This document shows positions 1 to 51,692 of a stretch of DNA of 64,000 nucleotides, in pieces. How positions within the stretch are numbered: the first letter of the stretch is position 1; each line of letters begins with the position of its first letter. The position numbers were made by a program, and so were the translations under genes. The notes under the pieces are model-generated. The model saw only the letters and a program-made list of their open reading frames with translations, had not been told where the DNA came from and searched no databases. This DNA is from a plasmid. Location: sequence record NZ_CP084013.1; one strand, given 5' to 3'.

Positions 1-268
1 GCCCGTATCCCACATGACTAGGCCGTATATCCACGAAGGTGATGTGCGGCGGCAGACTACCATCCGCGCGTTGCACAAGCATGGAAGCGGCGCCGCCCAA
101 CGAAACAAGCAAGGCTCCCTCGTCGGTGATGACAGCCGGACCCGCGAGTTCGGCTCCGCTGTCATACCGGACCCGCAGCATCAGGTCTCCGTTTTTCTTC
201 GGATTGGTCAACGCTCCTCCTCTTTTTATGTGGACTTCTTCAGTATAACAACCATATTGTATTTTACA

Positions 269-4999: not shown

Positions 5000-5023
5000 T
5001 GTTAAACTGAATATGTCCACATA
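5000..5023 (+). promoter_or_regulatory. motif-1 copy
   Basis: tgttaaactgaatatgtccacata upstream of 5053..5382. Confidence 0.5.
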
Positions 5024-32962: not shown

Positions 32963-32986
32963 CGTTATACTGAATATGTCCACATA
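32963..32986 (+). promoter_or_regulatory. motif-1 copy
   Basis: cgttatactgaatatgtccacata upstream of 33013..34059. Confidence 0.55.
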
Positions 32987-37383: not shown

Positions 37384-37417
37384 GACTCTAGGAAAATGCC
37401 GGGTGGTTTTTACTTCC
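37384..37417. terminator. bidirectional hairpin terminator
   Basis: aaaatgccgggtggtttttacttcccggcatttt. Confidence 0.5.
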
Positions 37418-37429
37418 CGGCATTTTACC

Positions 37430-37453
37430 TGTTATACTGAATCTGTCCACATA
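37430..37453 (+). promoter_or_regulatory. motif-1 copy
   Basis: tgttatactgaatctgtccacata upstream of the DivIVA-like gene. Confidence 0.55.
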
Positions 37454-37486
37454 GAAAAAAGTGAAGTCAGGAGACCCAAATCCACC

Positions 37487-38311
37487 ATGCCCATCATCGA
37501 ATTCGACACGAAGATGCGAGGCTACGATCCCCAACAAGTCAATGACGCCGTAACCAATTTCCAGGACACCATCAACAAGTATGCGCAAGCAAACACTGAT
37601 CTGAAGAGAACCCTGGATACGGTCAACAACCAGTTCACCCAGGCAAACCAAGACATCGATCAGCTGCAAGCCGAAAACAAGAAGCTCTCCGAACGGATCG
37701 AAGAACTCGAAAAGCAGAACGACGATCTGGAAGCAAAACTCAAGAACAAGTACACGAGCGTGGGCGACGATGTGAGGAAACTCCTCGAAGACACCCAGAC
37801 CGTTTATCATGCTGCGGAAAAGAACGCAGCCGACATCAAGAACAAGGCGCTGCAGGAAGCTGAAAACATTCGCAAGCAGAGCCAGTCCGCCGCGGAGAAA
37901 GCGATAGTGGACGCGCGGCAGGTCGCCGAAAAGAACGTGAAGGAATCCCAAGCGAAGTCGAAGCAGATCATCGAATCCGCGCAGCAGTCCGCCGCACAGT
38001 TGCGTAAGGAAGCCGACTCGTATGCCACTGGACGGCAAAACATCGCGGAGCAGGCCGATGCAAGGGTTCGTGCGATTCTCGGCCGTCTTGAGGAGGCAAG
38101 CAAAGTGCTTGACAACGCCTACCAGTCCGGACGCAAGCCTAACGCCACTACAGTCCAGTCAGCTCCGAAGGATGCGCCAACACCGGTCATCGCCGGCCAG
38201 GCCACTAATCCGAACGAGGCGGATCTTGAAGACGATAGGACCATCGCCTTCGCTCAAATCCATGCGAAGAACACCGCATCCGCACCCGCGACCCCTGTTG
38301 ACGCCCAATAA
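37487..38311 (+). CDS. DivIVA-domain coiled-coil protein
   Basis: N-terminal DivIVA signature FDTKMRGYDPQQVNDAV followed by a long coiled coil. Confidence 0.65.
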   Translation: MPIIEFDTKMRGYDPQQVNDAVTNFQDTINKYAQANTDLKRTLDTVNNQFTQANQDIDQLQAENKKLSERIEELEKQNDDLEAKLKNKYTSVGDDVRKLLEDTQTVYHAAEKNAADIKNKALQEAENIRKQSQSAAEKAIVDARQVAEKNVKESQAKSKQIIESAQQSAAQLRKEADSYATGRQNIAEQADARVRAILGRLEEASKVLDNAYQSGRKPNATTVQSAPKDAPTPVIAGQATNPNEADLEDDRTIAFAQIHAKNTASAPATPVDAQ

Positions 38312-38326
38312 GACCATTCCCGGAAC

Positions 38327-38569
38327 GTGAGAATCTTGATCCTCCAATACGTAATGGTTATGACCGGAGGATATGCCAGTTCATGGCTTATCCTCCATGT
38401 CGGCATGCTGTTCGGGCAAGGCGCGAAGAACGCCGCTTCTCTGGACCGAATCAAGGAAGCCCGCTGTTGGAACATCGCATATTATCTGTGCGTCATCCTG
38501 ACGTTCCTGTGCGTCATTGCCGGATCATTGGGTCTCATGCTCCTGTTCAAGAAGCTGATCATTGACTGA
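38327..38569 (+). CDS. small membrane protein
   Basis: two hydrophobic helices. Confidence 0.3.
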   Translation: MRILILQYVMVMTGGYASSWLILHVGMLFGQGAKNAASLDRIKEARCWNIAYYLCVILTFLCVIAGSLGLMLLFKKLIID

Positions 38570-38783
38570 AAAAACATCCCTCAAGCAGTCCCGTAATCCT
38601 TTCCTGACCATCGGACGCTATGTCCGGCAGGTAATCGATGAAACCCGTAAGACGGTGACTCCAACCGCCCGCGAATGGATGGCCTGGAGTATTGCCGCAT
38701 TCGTGTTCGTCATCCTGCTCATGATATTGGTCACGGGCATGGATTTCGGGCTCGGCAAACTCACTCTCATGGTGTTCGGGTGA
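38562..38783 (+). CDS. secE: SecE-like preprotein translocase subunit paralog
   Basis: 73 aa; FLTIGRYVRQVIDETRKTVTPTAREWMAWSIAAFVFVILLMILVTGMDFGLGKLTLMVFG matches the SecE C-terminal TM pattern. Confidence 0.65.
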   Translation: MTEKTSLKQSRNPFLTIGRYVRQVIDETRKTVTPTAREWMAWSIAAFVFVILLMILVTGMDFGLGKLTLMVFG

Positions 38784-38964
38784 CGGTCACACATCCCGTG
38801 ACCCTTGCCATGCTGCTATGGATGGGTATCGCCCTGCTCACGTTTCTTCTCATGAGCGTATGGACGGATAATCCACAGCATCGCAGCACCTATCGCCATT
38901 GGGCTGTCGCATACCTGACAGCCCTGATCATCTTCATCGCCATCTTCTATTCCGAAGGAACCCT

Positions 38965-39207
38965 ATGGCCGTTCTCATCATCGTTTTGAAAACCATCGTC
39001 GCCGTCCTGAGCGTCCTGCTATCCCTGCTGATTCTTCTGCACAAAGGCAAGGGCGGGGGATTGTCCGACATGTTCGGCGGCGGCTTGACCGCAAACGCAG
39101 GCACATCCGGGGTCGCGGAGAAGAACCTCAACCGTTGGACGGTCGGCATCGCGATCCTATGGGTTTTGCTGATCGTCTCGATCAGCCTCATCGCAAAAAC
39201 CATCTGA
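38965..39207 (+). CDS. secG: SecG-like preprotein translocase subunit paralog
   Basis: LLILLHKGKGGGLSDMFGGG...AEKNLNRWTVGIAILWVLLIV is the SecG signature. Confidence 0.65.
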   Translation: MAVLIIVLKTIVAVLSVLLSLLILLHKGKGGGLSDMFGGGLTANAGTSGVAEKNLNRWTVGIAILWVLLIVSISLIAKTI

Positions 39208-41269: not shown

Positions 41270-42020
41270 CAGCGATAGGCCACGATCTTGTTCAGGATTT
41301 CCTTTTGTTCGGCGAAATCACCAGAAGCAAGAAGAATCATGGCCGTCGCTCGACTCCGCAAGGAAAATCAAGTGGACAACACCCTCCTAGGAGATCAAGA
41401 TCGTGGCCTATCGGTGTAAATGTATTCACCGATAGGCCACTATCGTTCGTTCTCGTTCTTACTGCTATAAAAGAGTATGTCCAGTATGTAGTATGACTAT
41501 AAGCACTGCCCGTCAGCCCTTATAGGAGAAGCGGTTTGAGCAGGTTCGTTACACCGATAGTCCACGGATTCGGCAGTGATATTCCACGGAAACGACACTG
41601 ATAGGTCACTAAAACAGCAGCGATAGTCCACTATCATTGCATGGATACTCCACGTTGCAAGACCATCGTCAAAGGCGATTGCACCGATAGTCCATCATTG
41701 GATGCACCGATAGGCCACTATCCGCGAAAAGTGCCGGATAGTGGCAGTATACAAGGCATGGAACCGTCGGATAAGCAACGCAGTAATACTGCGGAAGAAA
41801 GGTTTTTGCACCGATAGGCCATCAACAGAGACAAGAAAACAGCATCGATAGGCCACTACGTGTGGGATGAAATCCACGAATCAACTTCAAAAAAATTGGG
41901 AAACTGCACCGATAGGCCACGTGTCGATACAGCGATATGCCATCAGCATCAAAAACCGACTGCATTAAGCACTGATCTGCATCAGCGAATAAGGTGGGAC
42001 GATTAGTGGCCTATCGCTGC
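41270..42020. repeat. array of at least 12 copies of CACCGATAGGCCAC-like 14-mers (both orientations)
   Basis: copies near 41276, 41403, 41428, 41551, 41596, 41620, 41685, 41708, 41738, 41810, 41848, 41901, 41926 and 42005; about 750 bp without a credible ORF. Confidence 0.7.
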
Positions 42021-42991
42021 CAATCGCCCCGCCCCTCGTCCAAAGCACGCCGTTCCGCCTTGGGTGGGACGGACGTTGGCGACGGGTGCAGGATGATGCC
42101 GTCCCGGGTGGTTTCCACGTTCGCGGCGGGATACACGTCGTGAATCTTCTTCAATGCTTCACGGAACTTGGCTTTGAACACGCGGCGTTCCTTGATGCTG
42201 TCGCCGAAACGTCCGTGCAGCCAATCCCAATCCAATGTGAGGTCGTGATGCAGGTTGCGGAATGTTCCGGTCAGCCACACGTACACGTCGTAGGGGAGCA
42301 CTGATTTGCCGGACAGCAGGTAGTTGGTGGCACGAGTGTCGAATGGTGCCGACTCCTGGGCGAGCCTGTCCCACACTTCATCGGTGAGGATGAACTTGGC
42401 GCCGCTGAAATCCTGATTATTGTTATCGTTCAGGAAGCTGACGGCCTTCACCATCTGCATGTTCACGGAGTCGAACCGATCCCGGTTGCCCGCAAACCCG
42501 GTTTTCTGCCTGATGCTGATATGACAGTACAGGAGACGGCGCAACTGTTCCTGCAAACGTTTCGATGACTGTCCTCCACGGGGTATGCCGAGCTCTTCGG
42601 ACAACTGGTACATGCTGGGAATCGTGATGGTGTGCTGCGACGGGTCAACGGTCGGGGTTTTCCTTGTTCCCGCAGAGCGAATCTGCTTTGCCATCCACGC
42701 CATCAACAGTCGGGGATATTTCCCGTAGGGGAAGTCCCTTGACCTGGTGAGGCTATCGATACCGGCTTCGAGGATGTATTCGACGGTACTGTTGTCTTTG
42801 CTGACGAAGTCGGTGCCTTCCGCCGGGGGAGTGGCGGGGAAAAGGGTGCTGGTGAGGATGCTGTGCCCGTACCAGATTTCCTTACTGTCCGGCAAACGGT
42901 TTTCGATGTCTGAGATCGTGGCTACCCGGTCGAGCACGAGGTCGGTTGAATGGGTAGCTGGTTTCGTGTTGTCCGGACTGTTGTTGGTCAT
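42011..42991 (-). CDS. RepA-like replication initiator (paralog 2)
   Basis: paralog of 19702..20751; 14-mer array at its 3' side; motif-2 copy about 110 bp upstream. Confidence 0.5.
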   Translation of the reverse strand: MTNNSPDNTKPATHSTDLVLDRVATISDIENRLPDSKEIWYGHSILTSTLFPATPPAEGTDFVSKDNSTVEYILEAGIDSLTRSRDFPYGKYPRLLMAWMAKQIRSAGTRKTPTVDPSQHTITIPSMYQLSEELGIPRGGQSSKRLQEQLRRLLYCHISIRQKTGFAGNRDRFDSVNMQMVKAVSFLNDNNNQDFSGAKFILTDEVWDRLAQESAPFDTRATNYLLSGKSVLPYDVYVWLTGTFRNLHHDLTLDWDWLHGRFGDSIKERRVFKAKFREALKKIHDVYPAANVETTRDGIILHPSPTSVPPKAERRALDEGRGDWQR

Positions 42992-43097
42992 GGTTCTCTA
43001 TGGTAGCGGCAATCAGCGGAATACGAAAAAACGATGTTTGGTGGCGCTTGTCCGGGTTTTCCCCGGTGCGACACGCCGTATATCAAACATATTTTTT

Positions 43098-43124
43098 TGT
43101 TATTAACCGTTGATATTTCAACAT
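43098..43124 (-). promoter_or_regulatory. motif-2 copy (minus-strand orientation)
   Basis: reverse complement gaaatatcaacggttaataacaa upstream of paralog-2 rep. Confidence 0.45.
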
Positions 43125-43171
43125 TATGGCTTGTTTATAGGGTTTCTCTTTTTTGACAGCATCAAAATACT

Positions 43172-43195
43172 TGTTATACTGAATGTGTCCACATA
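43172..43195 (+). promoter_or_regulatory. motif-1 copy heading the RNA-gene region
   Basis: tgttatactgaatgtgtccacata; the next credible features downstream are a structured noncoding stretch, the tmRNA and the tRNA array. Confidence 0.5.
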
Positions 43196-43750
43196 GAAAT
43201 GAAAGAGGTTCAAGGATCCATCAAATCGGATCATTTCTTCGACTTCTCTCAAGACTGCAATCCGACAAAAGCGGATCATCCCGGAGCAAGACCGGGGCAG
43301 TCGCGAAGCATCCTGCGTAGGAAGCCAACCACTACACCACGCACGTGATGCGGACGCTTGAAAACCGAAGAGAGACACCAAAAACATTCGTGTCCAAGGC
43401 AACTCTAGCCCGCATGGGCGTGAGGACAAGACCTTGGACCATACGCCACCCTTGCAAGGTGGCAGCAGTAAAGACATGGGTTGAACGGCTGAAGTTCACG
43501 CCGTTCAACCCATATCACCTGTTCAGTTCGGCCGGTTCTGGTTTCGGATGTACCGCGACTACAATGCGGCCCTGAACATTCTCGACGCGGCAGGGCTTGC
43601 CGAGTCGTTAAACGCGCATGGAGACGGTATAAGACTGCGCTTGGCTTCGGCCAAGCGCAGCAGCCGTCAGGGAAGTGCGAACCCTACAGGCGGAACGCTT
43701 GCGCGTTCCGCGCTGGGAATCCCGGTGCTAAAGCACCGGGAGGAAGTCAA

Positions 43751-44136
43751 TGGGGCTGACAGGCTTTCGATAGCCTGCCGGAAACCATTTGCTACGTGCC
43801 GGAGGCCGGTAAGGACAACCGTCATCAACCTTGCCACAAGAATAGACGCCAACACCGTTTCTTCTTCCCGTTTCACCCTCGTAGCGTGAAACCCGACTTT
43901 GATCCCATTGCCGATTAACGGGTCAAAGCCGGAAAACTTTGAATCGGACTGGTCGGACAGTCGGACGATGGATTCGCCCGACCAGTACATGAACATCGTC
44001 TACAAGCCGTGCGGGTTCGCCGAACGCACCCGTCCACGGATGATCTTCCCCACGCAAGTGGGGATAAACCTACGCACGTGACAGCAAGCAAAGGCTGACA
44101 GCAGGCCAGATCCGAGTTCGATTCTCGGCAGCTCCA
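43751..44136 (+). ncRNA. ssrA: tmRNA (ssrA-like), tag reading frame (A)NTVSSSRFTLVA
   Basis: 5' GGGGCUGACAGGCUUUCGAUAGCC matches the tmRNA P1/P2 consensus; 3' GAGUUCGAUUCUCGG CAGCUCC A forms a T-arm with an acceptor strand complementary to the 5' GGGGCUG; tag ORF GCC AAC ACC ... GTA GCG TGA at about +95. Confidence 0.6.
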
Positions 44137-44244
44137 CGACCCTGATCCATCTCCCATGAGCTTGTGCAGACTCACGGTCTGCGGGTACAGATGAATCGGG
44201 CACGGTACGCATCGCACCGTGACGGACGACAGAAGCGATGCACC

Positions 44245-44326
44245 GGTGGTGTGGCCCAGCGGCGACGGCAGCAGACTGTAAATCTGCGACAAGGAAACAC
44301 CGGAGGTTCGAGTCCTCCCGCCACCA
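44245..44326 (+). tRNA. tRNA-Tyr(GTA), long variable arm
   Basis: acceptor GGUGGUG/CGCCACC, anticodon loop cuGUAaa, T-loop UUCGAGU. Confidence 0.65.
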
Positions 44327-44525
44327 CTATCCGCCTGGTTGCAAACAGGCGGATTAACAGGTAGCGGCGCCTTCAAGGCCGTGCTGTGGTTTTCGTTTGC
44401 ACACAGTATCTAAACAACAAACGGATTTTATCCGCTGTCAGGCCAGTCTCATTAGTCTGACAGCGAACGGTAAAAGCCGGAATGATACGCGCCATGAGAC
44501 GACGCGTTCCGGCCGGCTTCGTAGC

Positions 44526-44585
44526 TCAAACGGCGGAGCATGCATGGTTGGTGGTTCGAATCCACCCGGAGCCACGTTTTTGACA
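44526..44585 (+). pseudogene. tRNA-like element lacking the anticodon arm (60 nt)
   Basis: acceptor, D-arm and T-arm (GGUGG UUCGAAU CCACC) present but only 10 nt between D and T arms. Confidence 0.35.
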
Positions 44586-44821
44586 GGTCTTACAACCGGA
44601 GAGTCGAGGACTGTGAAGAAAAACTGGAAGAGCGTGCAAATCCTAGGTCGCACGCTTGGAAGGGGAGGTTTCGCAGGAGGTTAGGAAAACCGGTGGAGAC
44701 AGTCTAAACACGCGAAAGAATCAAGATGAAAGCATCGTGGTACTGGCTTAAGACGGTGCCAGAATCTGAGGAAATCGCGTTTAATAGGGCACGTACGTAG
44801 CTGGTAAGCCACGGAGTCCTG

Positions 44822-44895
44822 TCAAAAATATCGGATTGTGGCGCAGTTTGGTAGCGCACGTGCTTTGGGAGCATGGGGTCGCAGGTTCGAATCCT
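44822..44895 (+). tRNA. tRNA-Pro(TGG)
   Basis: cloverleaf with anticodon loop uuUGGga. Confidence 0.65.
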
Positions 44896-44975
44896 GTCAA
44901 TCCGACTCGGAGACCAGCCATCCCTCTTTCGGCTGGCGGACTATACGTCACCGCCGTGCGACGTATCCGAAAAAA

Positions 44976-45050
44976 GCACGGCAATGCGGATGTGGTGCAG
45001 TGGCAGCACGCCTGCTTCCCAAGCAGGAAACCGCGGGTTCGAACCCCGTC
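44976..45050 (+). tRNA. tRNA-Gly(CCC), CCA encoded
   Basis: acceptor GCGGAUG/CAUCCGC, loop uuCCCaa. Confidence 0.7.
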
Positions 45051-45185
45051 ATCCGCTCCATCCGGAAAACCAAAACAATGGATCTGATCCAACAATGGGA
45101 CTCGTAACCGTCCTTTCCATGGGACGTTTCCGGAGAAACATGGACGAACAGCCTCGGCATGGGCGCACATCGTCTAGGAAGAAAA

Positions 45186-45257
45186 CATGCCAGTCGCCCC
45201 GGTAGCTCAGAGGAAGAGCAGGTGCCTTTTAAGCACTGGGTCCGGATATCGTAATTC
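45186..45257 (+). tRNA. tRNA-Lys(TTT), atypical T-loop AUCGUAA
   Basis: acceptor GCCCCGG/UCGGGGC, loop cuUUUaa. Confidence 0.55.
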
Positions 45258-45431
45258 CGTCGGGGCACGATGCTTGGTACATCGCCGAGCATAAGCGCAT
45301 CAATCTATTATCGGATAGGCTGCGGCAACTTCTTCTTCCGGCCGCGCGCGAAACAAGGGAAGGAAAACACACAGTGCGACGGACCAGGGAAGGGCCTATA
45401 ACCCAGATCCCATAACAGTCCGTCGTACGGT

Positions 45432-45503
45432 GCCTCTGTAGCTTAAATGGTAGAGCAACGGTCTGAAGCACCGTGGATGCTGGTTCGATTCCAGACGGAG
45501 GCA
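45432..45503 (+). tRNA. tRNA-Phe(GAA)
   Basis: loop cuGAAgc, T-loop UUCGAUU. Confidence 0.6.
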
Positions 45504-45831
45504 CGAAGCAATCCATCCGATCAATGGACTGCTTTCAGGGAGTGATCGAACAATCGCATCGGAAACGAGGCGATAAGATGAGCCGGGCCCGGCAGGGTGG
45601 TTTGCGACCGAACCGGCGGCACGTCCAGAGGGGATCTGACATGATCTCGTTTGTCCTCGACGTTGCTGGTAAAACCCAATCCAGTCTCCCGATTCCCCTC
45701 CATCTGTCATTCAGGACGGATGGGGAGGACGCTCTTTTTGCAGCGATGGTCTCCGGAGCGACATCAATGAGGACCATGCCGAACACGGCCCGGCACAGGC
45801 GTACGTCGTTAAAGGAACGAAATGTGCCATC

Positions 45832-45907
45832 GCCCTCGTAGCTCAATCGGATTCAGAGCGTTGGTCTACGGAACCGGAGGTTGCGGGTTCGAACCCCGCC
45901 GAGGGCA
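45832..45907 (+). tRNA. tRNA-Arg(ACG)
   Basis: acceptor GCCCUCG/CGAGGGC, loop cuACGga. Confidence 0.7.
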
Positions 45908-45958
45908 CTCGGAGCAGGAAGCTATTCCGCTGCCTATCTTCGGCTTCCTGCTCCACAT

Positions 45959-46033
45959 GCGTCGGTAGCTTAACGGCAGAGTACCGGTCTCCAAAACCGG
46001 TGGGTGTGAGGTCGAGACTCACCCGACGTGCCA
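45959..46033 (+). tRNA. tRNA-Trp(CCA), CCA encoded
   Basis: anticodon stem CCGGU/ACCGG, loop cuCCAaa. Confidence 0.6.
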
Positions 46034-46157
46034 GGACGGTATTGTTTGGCTCCTTACTCACTCACGGATTCGTCAAGCCGAATGATACCGTTCCACCCGG
46101 TTCCGATCGTCGTTTGAAGGATTTCCTATTCTCTTCGGCTGTTCGACCGGAACCATC

Positions 46158-46239
46158 GCCCCGTTGGCGGAACTGGTAGACGCATCCGGCTCAAACCCGG
46201 ATTCCTGACGGAGTGAGGGTTCAACTCCCTCATGGGGCA
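46158..46239 (+). tRNA. tRNA-Leu(CAA), long variable arm
   Basis: loop cuCAAac, T-loop UUCAACU. Confidence 0.65.
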
Positions 46240-46493
46240 CTATCCGTTGGAACCTTTTCGCACTCGCTTTGAAAAGATTTCAACGGATATTCTTCCGATT
46301 GGCGTGCCTAGTTTCTTTCTTCTTTCATTGACAGGTACGGCATGTTCCAGCTGCCTTGGAGTCGGACAGTGGAAGAAAAAAACGACTCCAAATAATCTTG
46401 GATGGCCGGTTTGAAAACAGATAACCAATGCGAAATTACTCCTTTGGAAAAGGGTTGTCGCTTTTTCTTGAACCACCCGGCCATCCACCATCC

Positions 46494-46568
46494 GCTTCCG
46501 TAGCTCAGTGGAATCAGAGCAGACGGCTTCTAATCGTCCGGTCGTGGGTTCGAATCCCACCGGGAGCA
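46494..46568 (+). tRNA. tRNA-Arg(TCT)
   Basis: loop cuUCUaa, T-loop UUCGAAU. Confidence 0.7.
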
Positions 46569-46618
46569 CGAGATCCACACGAATACGTCAACCAGTTTGT
46601 TCCTTCGTGCGGATCGGT

Positions 46619-46703
46619 GGAGTAGTGGCAGAGCGGTCGAATGCGACTGTCCCGAAAGCAGCAGGGGCGCAAGCCCCCGGAGGTTCGAATCCTCCCTACT
46701 CCG
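46619..46703 (+). tRNA. tRNA-Ser-type (long variable arm), anticodon tentatively CGA
   Basis: acceptor GGAGUAG/CUACUCC, T-arm GGAGG UUCGAAU CCUCC; anticodon loop parse ambiguous (C33). Confidence 0.45.
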
Positions 46704-46782
46704 CGAACCCCGCATGAAAATCGTTCCCATGAGGGGTTTATCGAGGTTTGGCCGGTGTGCCCCGTACTGAAAACACTGGCAT

Positions 46783-46868
46783 GGATGGTGGGCCGTGCGG
46801 CAAAGGCGCAGTCCTGCTAAGACTGTTGGGGCGGAAGTCCCTGGCGAGTTCGACTCTCGCACCATCCG
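46783..46868 (+). tRNA. tRNA-Ser(GCT), long variable arm
   Basis: anticodon stem CAGUC/GACUG, loop cuGCUaa. Confidence 0.65.
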
Positions 46869-46985
46869 CTAGCCGATCTGCAGTGATAGGCCACGGGATA
46901 GGACCTGGAATCCAGTCAGCAAAACGGGTTGGATCGGCATGGCGGAACGCAGTCGGGCATACGTGTCCGATGCGTTCGCGCACAT

Positions 46986-47056
46986 TCCTCCTTGGTGTAA
47001 CGGCAGCACACGGGTCTTTGGAACCCATAGTCCTGGTTCGAAACCAGGAGGAGGAG
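46986..47056 (+). tRNA. tRNA-Gln(TTG)
   Basis: U1-A72, loop cuUUGga, T-loop UUCGAAA. Confidence 0.6.
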
Positions 47057-47164
47057 CTTAGCGGCAGCACCTCGAATTGATTTTCCCTCTACACTCGATT
47101 CGACGTTTGTTGTACCGGACATACAGGAGGTCAGGCGCCAACCCAAGCCGCGAAACGACGCCAC

Positions 47165-47237
47165 GCCCTTGTAGCTCAGTGGATAGAGCGTCCGTCTCCG
47201 GAACGGAAGGCCACGAGTCCGATTCTCGTTGAGGGCA
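47165..47237 (+). tRNA. tRNA-Arg(CCG)
   Basis: loop cuCCGga. Confidence 0.65.
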
Positions 47238-47332
47238 CGCACGAAAACTCCGCCAACCATAATGCACGGAGCCCTTCTTCTCTTCTCTCTCAAACCGTCG
47301 CGCCTCGTACGGCTCGTGCATCACGAGGCAAC

Positions 47333-47405
47333 GCCCTTGTAGCTCAACGGATAGAGCGCCGGTTTCCTAAACCGGGCGCAGCCGGTCCGACTCCGGCCAT
47401 GGGCA
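47333..47405 (+). tRNA. tRNA-Arg(CCT)
   Basis: anticodon stem CCGGU/ACCGG, loop uuCCUaa. Confidence 0.65.
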
Positions 47406-47409
47406 CGAT

Positions 47410-47483
47410 GCCTTGTTAGCTCAGTCGGTTAGAGCGCGGAGCTCATAACTCCATGGTCGTTGGTTCAAGCCCAACACGAGGCA
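47410..47483 (+). tRNA. tRNA-Met/Ile2 (CAT) copy 1
   Basis: loop cuCAUaa, T-loop UUCAAGC. Confidence 0.6.
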
Positions 47484-47615
47484 CTAGGATACCGTCGTCA
47501 ACGTCACCGCCTGTTCTCTCGATCCATGGGGAATGGGGATGGAGCGATGGATGGCATTGCAGCTTTTAGTCCTTTCAGCTTAGGCTAAGCCGTTCAGCGT
47601 CGGCATCCGATAATC

Positions 47616-47689
47616 GCATTGCTAGCTCAGTCGGTTAGATCACCCTGCTCATAACGGGGAGGTCGTTGGTTCGATTCCAGCGCAATGCA
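47616..47689 (+). tRNA. tRNA-Met/Ile2 (CAT) copy 2
   Basis: acceptor GCAUUGC/GCAAUGC, loop cuCAUaa. Confidence 0.6.
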
Positions 47690-47820
47690 CGAGTGCCGTA
47701 TTTTGACGGTTCCCGCACTCGGTAAAAACGGAACCGTTGGAGTCCCGACCGGCCTCCGTCGTGATAAATCCCCGGTCAGGCAAACGCATGGGTCGTACGA
47801 TCATGACGCGCAACCGTGCG

Positions 47821-47890
47821 GGGCGTTGGTGTAATGGCAGCACGCCACCCCCTGTGGGTGGAGATCCGGGTTCGAATCCCGTGGCGTCCG
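47821..47890 (+). tRNA. tRNA, anticodon uncertain (possibly CTG, Gln)
   Basis: T-arm CCGGG UUCGAAU CCCGU; anticodon stem CCACC/GGUGG; short, G-U-rich acceptor. Confidence 0.4.
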
Positions 47891-47931
47891 CTAAGGAATC
47901 CGCTTCTGATACGGTGTGCGGATTCCTGTTT

Positions 47932-48003
47932 GCGGTGTTAGCACAACGGTTAGTGCCTCAGTCTTCCAAACTGATTACGCGGGTTCGATTCCCGTACACC
48001 GCT
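47932..48003 (+). tRNA. tRNA-Gly(TCC)
   Basis: acceptor GCGGUGU/ACACCGC, loop cuUCCaa. Confidence 0.7.
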
Positions 48004-48421
48004 CGATACGATTCCATGCCCGTTGGGAGTTCCCGGCGGGGAAGCCATGACCATGCGACTCGTGTCCGATGATCCGCGCCTCCGTTTGTTCGACGGACAC
48101 GCGGATATCGCCGGCGCCCATCATTCCAGGATGATGCGAACAGCCCCCGTCGGAGGGGTCGGCGCGAATCCGATCTGCCCATCCGCCAAGTGCGGACAGG
48201 GTTTCCTGAGTCGTAATCGATTACGCCTCTTGTCAGCCGATCCACATGATGTGGAAACGGTCTCGGTGGAGCATGGGCGTCATAGCCCGTGATCCTCGTC
48301 ATGCCTCATGCCGTAGTATGCGCGTCCACCGCAAGCATGAGTGCAAGGATCCGGCACGAGTGGCCGGATCGATTGTGGACTGTGCGGATATTGCGACCTC
48401 GCAAGGGTGGTATCCGCACAT

Positions 48422-48495
48422 GCTTTCGTAGCCCAACCGGTAGAGGCAACAGTCTAAGGAACTGTCCAGTCCGGGTTCGAACCCCGGCGAAAGCA
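48422..48495 (+). tRNA. tRNA with anticodon AAG (class I, atypical)
   Basis: acceptor GCUUUCG/CGAAAGC, anticodon stem ACAGU/ACUGU, loop cuAAGga, short variable arm. Confidence 0.45.
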
Positions 48496-48756
48496 CCAGC
48501 GGAAGCAACGGCGTCAACGCCACCCGATCCGGTTCGAACGTCTGACGGAACGGGAACGATGCTACGGTAGGTTCTCTCCATAACTGGGACCCGTAACCGT
48601 TGCAGCGCCCACTTCCGCTCATATTCTTGCGGAATATGATGTCAACGCCACCACCCGCCCGCTGCCATATTGGGGCGGAGTGGAACGATGGTCAAGGCGC
48701 AGGCCTGCACCTCAGTGGCCTGAACAGAACCGCCTCTCCAGCATCGTATCCGCAAC

Positions 48757-48831
48757 ACCGCTTCGTCCTTTAACGGTAGGATGCTCTGTTTTTTTTTGGA
48801 GTAATGCGGGTTCGAATCCCGTCGAAGCACG
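48757..48831 (+). pseudogene. degenerate tRNA-like sequence with T9 run in anticodon region
   Basis: T-arm GCGGG UUCGAAU CCCGU present but the anticodon arm is disrupted. Confidence 0.3.
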
Positions 48832-48968
48832 ATGGGCCCAGTGGCCACATGCGAAAAAACTGGGTTCCCGAATGGGAGCAGTCTGTGGCCGATGGCATGA
48901 ACCGGCCGCAGGACAAGCATCCCTGCCTCGCATGGCCCATCCGCCGTTCCTCATGCCGGAACGGTTCC

Positions 48969-49041
48969 GCCGTCGTAGCTCAGCTGGCAGAGCAGCGCCC
49001 TCGTAATGCGCAGGTCACCGGTCCGAATCCGGTCGATGGCT
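48969..49041 (+). tRNA. tRNA-Thr(CGT)
   Basis: acceptor GCCGUCG/CGAUGGC, loop cuCGUaa. Confidence 0.65.
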
Positions 49042-49066
49042 CTTTCTCCACTAAAAACCGACCTGT

Positions 49067-50409
49067 TTGGCCTTTCGCTGTTTGGTGTGGGTGGGTCTGT
49101 CAGGTGGTGACGGTGCTGAGGTCGAGTTTGCCGCAGGTCAGGTAGATCATGGTGCTGAAGTAGCCCATGTTCTTGAATCCGCGGGCTCGGGTCTTGACGT
49201 TCTGGATGACGCTGTTGAGTCCTTCGAGGATCGCGTTGGTGTAGGGGTGGTCGAAGTAGGCGAGGATGTCCCGCCAGTGGCGGCGTATCTGGCGGGCGAA
49301 CTCTTTCATGGGTTCGAGTCGGGAGCGCGTCATCCACGAGCACAGACGCTTGAGGGCCGTCTCGGCCTCGGCTCGATCGGCGCTGGTGTCGTAGATGTCC
49401 TGGAGGGTCTCGCGCATCTGACAGGCGCGTCCGGTTTTCAATCGTCGCCGTTGCAGGCTGCGCTTGGTTTCCAATTGCAGGCCGGTCAGGTTCGATTCGT
49501 TCCTCAACCACAGGTACTTGGTCCGCTTGAGCAGCGCGTTGCCGCGGGCCTCCTGTTTGCGGACCTTGTCGACGGCCTCGTTGGCGTGTTTGATCACGTG
49601 GAACTTGTCGATGATTCTCGCCGCGTTGGGCAGCCGCTCGCGGATGCCCTTGGCGAACCCCAGGCTCATGTCGCAGGTAACCAGACGCACCCGGTCGGGA
49701 TCGCCGTTGTGATCCATGAAATCCCGCGCGAACCGTTTGATCGTGGTCGAGTCCTTGCCCGGGACCACGCAGATTACGTTGCGCTCCACCAGGTCGGCGA
49801 CCACGGTGATGTACCGGTGGCCCTTCCGGCTGGTCTCGTCGATGCCTATGGCCTCCACGCCCGTGTAGTCCTCGTAAAGCCTCGCCTCGTCCACGTAATG
49901 GCGGATGAACCGCCACAGGCGGGTGTCATGTTCGCCGACCTGCTCGGCGATGTCCGCGACCGGCTGGCTTTTGGCCAGCTCCACGACCATCGCCTCGAAC
50001 AGGAGCGTGAACCCGCTTCCCGGCCTCGCCCACGGCACCGGGACCGCGTGCACGCCGTGGGCGGGGCACGTCACGCGCGGCACGCCCGCGTGAATGAACG
50101 CCTTGTACTGGAAGAAGTTCAGATGCCGCCACACGCGCTCCCTCGCGTCATGCACCGGACACGCGGCCTCGCCGCACCCCGGTTCCGGGCAGGGGAACCG
50201 CGAACCCGCCGCGAACCCGATCGCGATATGCAGTTCCCGTCTGCCGTCCTCCTCGTCACGGAACTCCACGCCCGACACCCTCCACGGGTCAGGCAGTTGC
50301 AGAGCGGCGGTGAACAACGACGTGGTATCCATACCCCCCAAACTACCCGACCAGCACCACCACCCCCCGACCCACTCACCCACACCAAACAGCGAAAGGC
50401 CAAAAAATA
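49067..50409 (-). mobile_element. ISL3-family insertion sequence
   Basis: about 32-bp terminal inverted repeats TTTGGCCTTTCGCTGTTTGGTGTGGGTG at 49067-49097 and 50361-50397 (inverted), flanking a transposase gene. Confidence 0.65.
49100..50332 (-). CDS. ISL3-family transposase
   Basis: MDTTSLFTAALQLPDPWRV N-terminus and overall ISL3 transposase architecture (410 aa). Confidence 0.8.
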   Translation of the reverse strand: MDTTSLFTAALQLPDPWRVSGVEFRDEEDGRRELHIAIGFAAGSRFPCPEPGCGEAACPVHDARERVWRHLNFFQYKAFIHAGVPRVTCPAHGVHAVPVPWARPGSGFTLLFEAMVVELAKSQPVADIAEQVGEHDTRLWRFIRHYVDEARLYEDYTGVEAIGIDETSRKGHRYITVVADLVERNVICVVPGKDSTTIKRFARDFMDHNGDPDRVRLVTCDMSLGFAKGIRERLPNAARIIDKFHVIKHANEAVDKVRKQEARGNALLKRTKYLWLRNESNLTGLQLETKRSLQRRRLKTGRACQMRETLQDIYDTSADRAEAETALKRLCSWMTRSRLEPMKEFARQIRRHWRDILAYFDHPYTNAILEGLNSVIQNVKTRARGFKNMGYFSTMIYLTCGKLDLSTVTT

Positions 50410-51600: not shown

Positions 51601-51624
51601 TATGTGGACGTATTTAGTATAACA
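51601..51624 (-). promoter_or_regulatory. motif-1 copy (minus-strand orientation)
   Basis: reverse complement cttgttatactaaatacgtccacata. Confidence 0.5.
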
Positions 51625-51671: not shown

Positions 51672-51692
51672 TATGCTGAACGCGTCCACATA
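51672..51692 (+). promoter_or_regulatory. degenerate motif-1 copy
   Basis: atatgctgaacgcgtccacata upstream of 51841..52251. Confidence 0.35.

Follow-up and report, generated by a model that had tools for sequence, protein, structure and literature searches.

Why should a mobile element bring its own ribosome-rescue RNA? The question is raised by a 64,000-nucleotide stretch of the plasmid sequence record NZ_CP084013.1 (the window), in which a preliminary description had noticed a gene for a transfer-messenger RNA (tmRNA, ssrA) whose proteolysis tag ends in LVA. We confirmed the gene, and our results support the interpretation given to it: the RNA is very probably a functional second tmRNA of a pMP7017-family megaplasmid, encoded beside repA in a "translation support" block that comprises the tmRNA, ~20 tRNAs and a manA-like RNA. 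The finding rediscovers what had been published for a plasmid family that is already known. On pMP7017, Dineen et al. (2024; PMC10832533) described a "highly transcribed 397 bp tmRNA" (positions 120,876-121,272) that lies between the replicase gene and the tRNA region and has the tag A-NTVSSSRFTLAA, also given as ANTVSSSRFTLAA; in their supplement it is found only in the RNA table, as an RNAcentral match and without a comparison to the host gene. The 34-bp promoter motif, the tRNA array and the manA motif of pMP7017 are likewise already published. What we add is incremental, namely the foreign ancestry of the tmRNA, LVA as the majority allele at a residue that is A, V or T, an expected dependence on host SmpB, a link between the motif and the tmRNA, and a miniature insertion sequence (mini-IS) at its 5' end.

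Identity and structure of the tmRNA gene

The gene and its tag frame are defined as follows:

43752..44136, + strand: tmRNA (ssrA) gene, from the 5' end to the discriminator A, by ARAGORN and Rfam RF00023
43848..43889, + strand: tag frame, GCC resume codon, (A)NTVSSSRFTLVA, stop codon TGA at 43887-43889

ARAGORN called a single tmRNA in the window (43752-44137, + strand), with the tag ANTVSSSRFTLVA and its stop encoded at gene positions 97-138. The Rfam family RF00023 matched 43752-44139 over the full model (1-374 of 374) with 84.5 bits (E 2.5e-31), the gathering score of this family being 47 bits. The gene is thus present where it had been described (43751-44136), although its first base is 43752. 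Its tRNA-like 3' end, said to be complementary to the 5' end, could be read directly: 5' GGGGCUG pairs with 3' CAGCUCC in a 7-bp acceptor stem, where G3 opposite U forms the wobble pair that is the alanine identity element, and the T-arm (given as GAGUUCGAUUCUC and as CCGAGUUCGAUUCUCGG) has a loop of the GUUCGAnUC type. CCA is not encoded at the 3' end, where CUCCA is followed by CGA. The resume codon GCC at 43848 is preceded by AAUAGAC, and the tag begins about 95 nt into the gene, as had been noted. The frame ends in GUA-GCG-UGA (43881-43889), the penultimate codon GTA at 43881-43883 being the polymorphic one; the stop codon belongs to helix 5, on the 3' side of the GUUUCAC/GUGAAAC stem.

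Structural conservation was assessed on 40 distinct haplotypes, whose alignment comprised 397 columns (95 of them variable) and 109 predicted base pairs. Compensatory double changes occurred in 4 of the 109 pairs, in helix 2, the stem after the tag and the T-stem; that in the T-stem is a single change across the family, from A-U to G-C, and those in the stem 3' of the tag affect pairs 146-177 and 148-175. One-sided swaps to another standard pair, mostly a G-U wobble, were seen in 21 pairs and any mismatch in 6. Both the covariance model and RNAalifold leave out pseudoknots. These structure-preserving substitutions and the published RNA-seq of pMP7017 argue for a functional RNA, and on sequence and predicted structure the plasmid gene is a real, full-length tmRNA.

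Plasmid family and location

The preliminary description had further regarded the gene as borne by a mobile element, which agrees with its closest matches. In blastn searches of plasmids, the segment 43172-44400 was 99.2% identical to two plasmid records of Bifidobacterium longum K2-21-4, 98.8% to the DFI.7.60 plasmid, 97.7% to DS1566 p1 and 93.8% to Bifidobacterium breve pMP7017. These plasmids measure 184-198 kb and all belong to rep_cluster_329; judged by these matches, the window belongs to a pMP7017-family conjugative megaplasmid of B. longum. The tmRNA adjoins the replication gene:

42011..42991, - strand: repA, RepA_C family (Pfam PF04796, E 2.3e-10)

This gene is divergent from the tmRNA promoter and is annotated as RepA in K2-21-4 p1, DFI.7.60, DS1566 p1 and pMP7017. 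The position of the tmRNA between repA and the tRNA array is kept across the family plasmids, and a tmRNA with the same flanks was present on 5 sequenced plasmids, 9 IMG/VR contigs and 84 gut-metagenome contigs. Several of the IMG/VR contigs are classed as viral by that database; blastn of the tmRNA segment against phage records gave nothing beyond a tRNA match. The pMP7017 tmRNA, when extracted independently, started exactly at 120,876, as published. The plasmid family occurs in ~10% of human gut metagenomes, mostly of infants and mothers (PMC10832533).

A plasmid-type tmRNA with its tRNA array was also seen on two metagenome contigs that are oversized for a ~190-kb plasmid, PVML01016918.1 (L192, 1.58 Mb) and OKVT01000001.1 (L194, 549 kb). 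Chromosomal integration, a larger replicon or misassembly could account for them.

Relation to the host tmRNA and SmpB

Host genes were sought with a degenerate tag pattern based on (A)KSNRTEFALAA, which we take to be the chromosomal tag of B. longum. The pattern recovered at least 120 chromosomal loci in Bifidobacterium, Gardnerella, Alloscardovia, Aeriscardovia and their relatives. In 25 of 25 sampled chromosomal loci ARAGORN called a tmRNA with the tag AKSNRTEFALAA, a uniformity that is partly circular because the pattern itself selected this tag. The comparison with chromosomal ssrA bore out that the LVA-ending plasmid tag differs from that of Bifidobacteriaceae. The chromosomal genes were 75-94% identical to one another, and the plasmid tmRNA shared 38.8-45.0% identity with these 25 Bifidobacteriaceae, which include close relatives of B. 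longum though not B. longum and B. breve themselves. The plasmid gene has neither the tag AKSNRTEFALAA nor the identity of at least about 75% that characterize host ssrA, and this low identity marks it as a horizontally acquired lineage and no recent duplicate of the host gene. Its source lineage was not found with 3'-end, 5'-end and tag patterns in IMG/VR or by blastn against phages and plasmids; these searches gave the same plasmid family only, plus unrelated RNAs that share the T-arm. The latter were a tRNA-Asp, an 80-nt RF00023 match (51.9 bits) and a permuted tmRNA, and were discarded.

No SmpB gene matched in the window, and none was found in the whole 198-kb K2-21-4 p1, either by tblastn (best E 0.9) or in the annotation. 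Among 70 plasmid records with SmpB matches there was no Bifidobacterium. The probe was E. coli SmpB, which gave 100% matches to annotated smpB genes and detected SmpB of Curtobacterium, Nocardia and Collinsella at E 1e-22 to 1e-27. Nor is smpB adjacent to chromosomal ssrA: the flanks in locus L018 hold a large glycosidase-like open reading frame (ORF) and other ORFs, without tblastn matches. Since the plasmid lacks smpB, its tmRNA must use the SmpB of the host.

Proposed function and points against it

The proposed pathway involves four further features upstream of the gene:

43153..43180, + strand: sigma-70-type promoter TTGACA-16-TATACT with an upstream TG, 11 of 12 consensus positions, presumed tmRNA promoter
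43167..43200, + strand: 34-bp regulon motif of the pMP7017 family, overlapping the -10 box ("motif-1" in the preliminary description)
43188..43518, + strand: 5' leader, conserved, structured, non-coding
43519..43750, + strand: mini-IS of the IS200/IS605 family, 232 nt, with a short left end, a tnpB 3' end and a right end

Transcription would start from TTGACA-16-TATACT, whose -10 box lies inside the plasmid-specific, operator-like motif, and would run through the structured leader of ~330 nt and, in the window variant, through the 232-nt mini-IS. Host RNase P would cut the 5' end at G43752, and the 3' end would be finished by host processing and by the host CCA-adding enzyme, because CCA is not encoded, as with all tRNAs of the plasmid. 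The RNA would then be charged by host alanyl-tRNA synthetase through the G3:U pair and delivered to stalled ribosomes by EF-Tu and by host SmpB, the plasmid having no smpB. Translation would resume at GCC and append ANTVSSSRFTLVA, and the tagged product would pass to host proteases that act on C-terminal tags (ClpXP type). The benefit would lie in added ribosome-rescue capacity for a host with ~190 kb of foreign genes that differ in codon bias and are highly transcribed. High transcription has been shown by RNA-seq for the 91%-identical pMP7017 orthologue (PMC10832533). From our own analysis the proposal draws on the identity of the gene, its structural conservation, its plasmid location, its foreign ancestry and the lack of a plasmid smpB.

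Several points weigh against a functional tmRNA as proposed. Aminoacylation, SmpB binding and tagging by the plasmid tmRNA are predicted, in any host, and compatibility with host SmpB is assumed for an RNA with only 39-45% identity to host ssrA. The pseudoknot regions, including the last one, fit the Rfam model poorly. ARAGORN misses the 394-nt (pMP7017-type) and 373-nt variants of the family, and since it does not call them, an annotation by ARAGORN alone would overlook these copies (loci L129, L131, L133, L192, L194, L144, L168 and L217); by Rfam the 394-nt form scores 82.8 bits. The transcription start of the pMP7017 tmRNA is absent from Dineen et al. (2024) and its supplement. Finally, the mini-IS could alter expression or 5' processing of the tmRNA, and the RNA-seq is of the IS-free pMP7017.

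An alternative that overlaps with added rescue capacity, and that we consider possible though unlikely, is counter-defence. As the plasmid enters by conjugation, anticodon nucleases, toxins or other defences might cleave or deplete the translation RNAs of the host, and the tmRNA and the tRNA array would serve mainly to make good this loss, with general rescue as a secondary effect; the tRNA arrays of phages have been suggested to act in a parallel way. Both the tmRNA and every tRNA diverge in sequence from the host copies (for the tRNAs see Table S5 of PMC10832533) and would evade sequence-specific nucleases. In the near-identical plasmid a gene of the RNA ligase family is located a few kb downstream, the plasmid carries several RelE, HigB, HipA and GNAT toxin systems, and the contigs called viral by IMG/VR point the same way. 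However, no nuclease is known that targets Bifidobacterium tmRNA, the sequence does not separate this role from simple supplementation of capacity, and codon-usage analysis favours supply of tRNAs as the function of the array (PMC10832533).

As the literature has already pointed out, this plasmid family offers a favourable natural setting in which to study why mobile elements carry ribosome-rescue RNAs. To our knowledge, accessory tmRNAs on conjugative plasmids are rare. The foreign lineage, the need for host SmpB and the naturally polymorphic degron residue offer a sharper experimental start.

Promoter and leader

In a consensus scan of 42900-44400, which recognises sigma-70-like hexamers only, 43153-43180 was the sole promoter-like site on the + strand. 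Its -35 and -10 boxes are kept in related loci, the pMP7017 equivalent being TTGCCA-17-TATACT. The published 34-bp consensus, AWAYATGYTATACTGAATATGTCCACATAAAAWA, overlaps the -10 box of 19 pMP7017 promoters (PMC10832533). An exact copy of its 21-nt core, TATACTGAATGTGTCCACATA, lies at 43175-43195, and the motif TATACTGAATRTGTCCACATA has 9 copies in the window, with 0 expected by chance:

227-247 (- strand)
272-292
1965-1985
5003-5023
32966-32986
37433-37453
43175-43195
51601-51621 (- strand)
51672-51692

The spacing between the motif and the 5' end of the tmRNA was fixed in 64 of the 74 related loci with enough upstream sequence, at ~346 nt without the mini-IS and ~578 nt with it. This constancy and the single promoter-like site are consistent with the earlier proposal that a motif-1 promoter drives the tmRNA. 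Because Dineen et al. (PMC10832533) sought the motif only upstream of translation start sites and drew no explicit link to the tmRNA, tying the two together is a small addition to the published work.

Between promoter and tmRNA we found no stem-loop with a U-run terminator, save a weak 5-bp candidate, and no intact ORF. The earlier statement that no protein gene intervenes therefore holds for intact genes, but it overlooked the tnpB-derived mini-IS at 43519-43750. The leader segment 43300-43518 aligns to pMP7017 almost without substitutions, a conservation about equal to that of the tmRNA, and contains 1-nt indels that differ between related plasmids and show it to be non-coding. The leader folds at -122.7 kcal/mol (z = -7.6), includes a 12-bp hairpin at 43478-43511, which ends 7 nt before the IS insertion point, and matched no Rfam family.

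Such a leader, 346-578 nt long, is unusual for ssrA, and its stability and conservation would suit an independent RNA. The promoter at 43153-43180 might accordingly make a separate structured RNA, with the tmRNA starting at an unrecognised promoter within the leader or the mini-IS, a site that a scan limited to sigma-70-like hexamers could miss. We think this unlikely: the interval holds no other promoter-like site and no U-run terminator, the spacing is conserved across the family, and highly expressed units of pMP7017 tend to have long 5' untranslated regions (PMC10832533). The site 43153-43180 is the best-supported candidate for the tmRNA promoter.

Tag polymorphism

The tag was surveyed in 98 copies, from the window, 4 plasmids, IMG/VR contigs and 84 gut-metagenome contigs. 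The penultimate codon was distributed as follows:

GTA, valine: 68 copies
GTG, valine: 2 copies
GCA, alanine: 16 copies
GCG, alanine: 6 copies
ACA, threonine: 6 copies

At the level of the residue these are 70 V, 22 A and 6 T (n = 98), and the final GCG-TGA was constant in 98 of 98 copies. LVA is the common allele and the published LAA a minority form. That the penultimate position is the sole variable one is partly circular, as the metagenome search pattern preset the first 33 nt (11 codons) of the tag. The variable codon sits in an RNA hairpin loop, where substitution carries no structural cost.

In E. coli at 37 °C, LacI with an LVA ending has a half-life of ~13 min, as against ~8 min with LAA (Purcell et al., 2012; PMC3511798). 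LVA is thus in E. coli a working and slightly weaker ClpXP degron, not a categorically different one. The preliminary description had suggested that a plasmid ssrA variant could re-tag stalled proteins with a different degron; the tag does differ from that of the host, but the claim is overstated, since E. coli ClpXP degrades LVA almost as fast as LAA (PMC3511798).

In its full form the idea is that the plasmid tmRNA is in competition with that of the host and marks rescued proteins with tags ending in FTLVA, FTLTA or FTLAA, which host proteases would handle differently, so that degradation or survival of truncated proteins is tuned in favour of the plasmid. It could draw on a tag body unlike the host AKSNRTEFALAA at most positions, on a penultimate residue with five codons and three amino acids next to an invariant last codon and stop, and on the somewhat slower degradation of LVA than of LAA in E. 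coli (PMC3511798). Yet all three endings keep a C-terminus of Leu, a small residue and Ala, which is near the canonical ClpX signal, the difference in E. coli is less than two-fold (PMC3511798), and the variability falls in a hairpin loop and was scored with the circularity just described. An altered fate of tagged proteins as the reason for the plasmid gene appears distinctly unlikely.

A miniature insertion sequence directly upstream of the tmRNA

The mini-IS stops 1 nt before the 5' end of the tmRNA and carries the last ~55 codons of tnpB. The window shares it with K2-21-4 and DFI.7.60, and DS1566 p1 and pMP7017 have a clean empty site instead, which reads CCCATATCA(C/T) followed by TGGGG. 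Positions 34-232 of the element are 75-77% identical to the 3' ends of annotated TnpB genes in tnpA-tnpB (IS605-type) elements of the sister plasmids, and the homology ends exactly at ...GGAGGAAGTCAA in all three aligned sequences; the nearest full-length relatives share 73-77% identity. Its translation, YRDYNAALNILDAAGLAESLNA..., resembles the TnpB C-terminus ...DRDYNAALNILDAAGLAESLNA. Pfam gave no match to this translation because the fragment is too short, and the homology is shown at the DNA level. The element folds strongly (z = -5.25) and contains weak Rfam matches to Transposase-2 and HgcC. Its first 33 nt gave no convincing alignment to the left ends of full elements. A TGTTCAG likeness to the full element, considered as left end or target motif, was rejected since it falls outside the boundary of that element. 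By these alignments the mini-IS is a deletion derivative that retains the right end.

In the window, sister plasmid and IMG/VR sequences the mini-IS was seen at one insertion site only. Of 84 family copies that could be scored, 54 carried it, each of them with the GTA (LVA) allele (54 of 54). With the mini-IS, the -10 box is 578 nt from the tmRNA in place of ~346 nt. The common form in gut metagenomes thus combines an LVA tag with a 5' IS remnant, unlike the studied pMP7017 reference. As a further observation, the 198-kb plasmid K2-21-4 p1 has ~14 annotated TnpB genes and 8 IS200/IS605 tnpA genes, an unusually high density of the IS605 family.

The right end of TnpB systems specifies the omegaRNA. 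Even without tnpB the mini-IS may yield an omegaRNA, for which the initial ~16-20 nt of the tmRNA gene would be the guide. A TnpB acting in trans, from one of the ~14 plasmid tnpB genes, would then cut empty-site sister plasmids at the target CCCATATCAC-TGGGGCTGACAGGCTTTCGA, and the mini-IS, anchored at the tmRNA gene, would serve in homing or in competition between plasmids. We consider it highly doubtful that either this holds or that the penultimate tag residue, with its V, A and T variants in five codons, is under diversifying selection that tunes the degradation of rescued proteins to each Bifidobacterium host.

That the locus is a non-functional relic or a mere recombination or attachment target is extremely improbable. 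In favour of such a reading, a mobile element sits only 1 nt before the tmRNA, ARAGORN misses some variants and integration into tmRNA genes is common. Against it, the gene has its full length and two intact ends, has evolved with preservation of structure, keeps its tag frame and stop in 98 copies and is highly transcribed in pMP7017 (PMC10832533).

The tRNA array and other features of the plasmid

Directly 3' of the tmRNA lie the remaining parts of the translation support block:

44245..49042, + strand: tRNA array of 20-21 genes, by ARAGORN and Rfam
45522..45695, + strand: manA-like RNA motif between tRNA-Phe and tRNA-Arg (RF01745, 48.2 bits, E 2.9e-10; below the gathering score of 55.2)

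CCA is likewise missing from all 20 downstream tRNA genes, many of which have the same CGA or CTA trailer. The pMP7017 counterpart is a transcribed array of 20 tRNAs with a manA motif (PMC10832533), whose position is equivalent to that of the manA-like motif in the window.

Some members of the array are unusual. A 60-nt tRNA-like element at 44515-44574 (+ strand) has an acceptor stem, a D-arm and a T-arm and no anticodon arm; Rfam scores it as tRNA with 44.8 bits and 13 deleted model positions, ARAGORN does not call it, and across 89 related loci it hardly varies, its conservation exceeding that of the tmRNA. The tRNA-Arg(UCU) at 46494-46569 is ordinary in the window, and the same slot has a remodelled anticodon stem-loop in several relatives, which ARAGORN reads as anticodon CUA, as in an amber-suppressor-like tRNA:

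L127, 3529-3603: CUA-tRNA
L130, 8527-8601: CUA-tRNA
L136, 6579-6653: CUA-tRNA
L168, 3417-3491: CUA-tRNA
L192, 3061-3135: CUA-tRNA

Two marginal Rfam tRNA matches on the + strand, at 48759-48830 (29.6 bits, not called by ARAGORN) and 47821-47891 (30.4 bits; threshold 29), may be degenerate members of the array. A 427-aa ORF for a putative transposase (49100-50383, - strand) abuts the end of the array after tRNA-Thr (48969-49042), where three relatives (L130, L133 and L194) have an extra tRNA-Ala(CGC) that is not called in the window.

Elsewhere the window encodes translocon parts of its own and a DivIVA-like protein within 37403-39207 (+ strand):

~37403-38311, + strand: DivIVA
38562-38783, + strand: SecE
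within 38899-39207, + strand: SecG

A sister plasmid adds SecY and WhiB (L226, 45184-46554), and K2-21-4 p1 also carries a type I-E Cascade gene set.

Comparison with known systems

The plasmid tmRNA resembles the chromosomal ssrA of Bifidobacteriaceae in being one-piece, in its similar length (393-400 nt in the chromosomal genes), in the G3:U pair, in an alanine resume codon ~96 nt in and in a tag that ends in L-x-A. It differs from them in the tag body, the genomic context and a global identity of 39-45%; L052, the only chromosomal copy that was extracted as far as the 3' end, encodes CCA, and the plasmid copy does not.

Accessory tmRNAs are often located beside tRNA genes, and large actinophages carry both a tmRNA and tRNA arrays. 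By blastn and with IMG/VR patterns, no phage or plasmid outside the Bifidobacterium family had detectable DNA similarity to the tmRNA. Plasmid pCPAA3 of Curtobacterium pusillum is likewise a mobile replicon with an accessory tmRNA, but it and a related Curtobacterium plasmid carry smpB, which the B. longum plasmid lacks.

The mini-IS recalls the derivatives of IS200/IS605 elements that resemble palindrome-associated transposable elements (PATEs) or miniature inverted-repeat transposable elements (MITEs) and still contain the omegaRNA region of TnpB: it keeps a tnpB 3' end and the right end, has a terminal hairpin and the terminus ...GGAGGAAGTCAA in common with full tnpA-tnpB elements of sister plasmids, and shows a clean presence/absence polymorphism. 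It differs from them in its occurrence at one site only and in full-length relatives that are only 73-77% identical.

The tmRNA of pMP7017 from B. breve JCM 7017 is the closest known system. It differs in an LAA tag (GCA) where the window has LVA (GTA), in the resume context (AACGAAC versus AAUAGAC), in its extracted length (394 versus 385 nt), in the absence of the mini-IS and in a -35 box TTGCCA with a 17-nt spacer in place of TTGACA with 16. Both belong to rep_cluster_329 and have 91.4% RNA identity, the same resume codon and first 11 tag residues, and the same order of repA, 34-bp motif promoter, leader, tmRNA and tRNA-Tyr.

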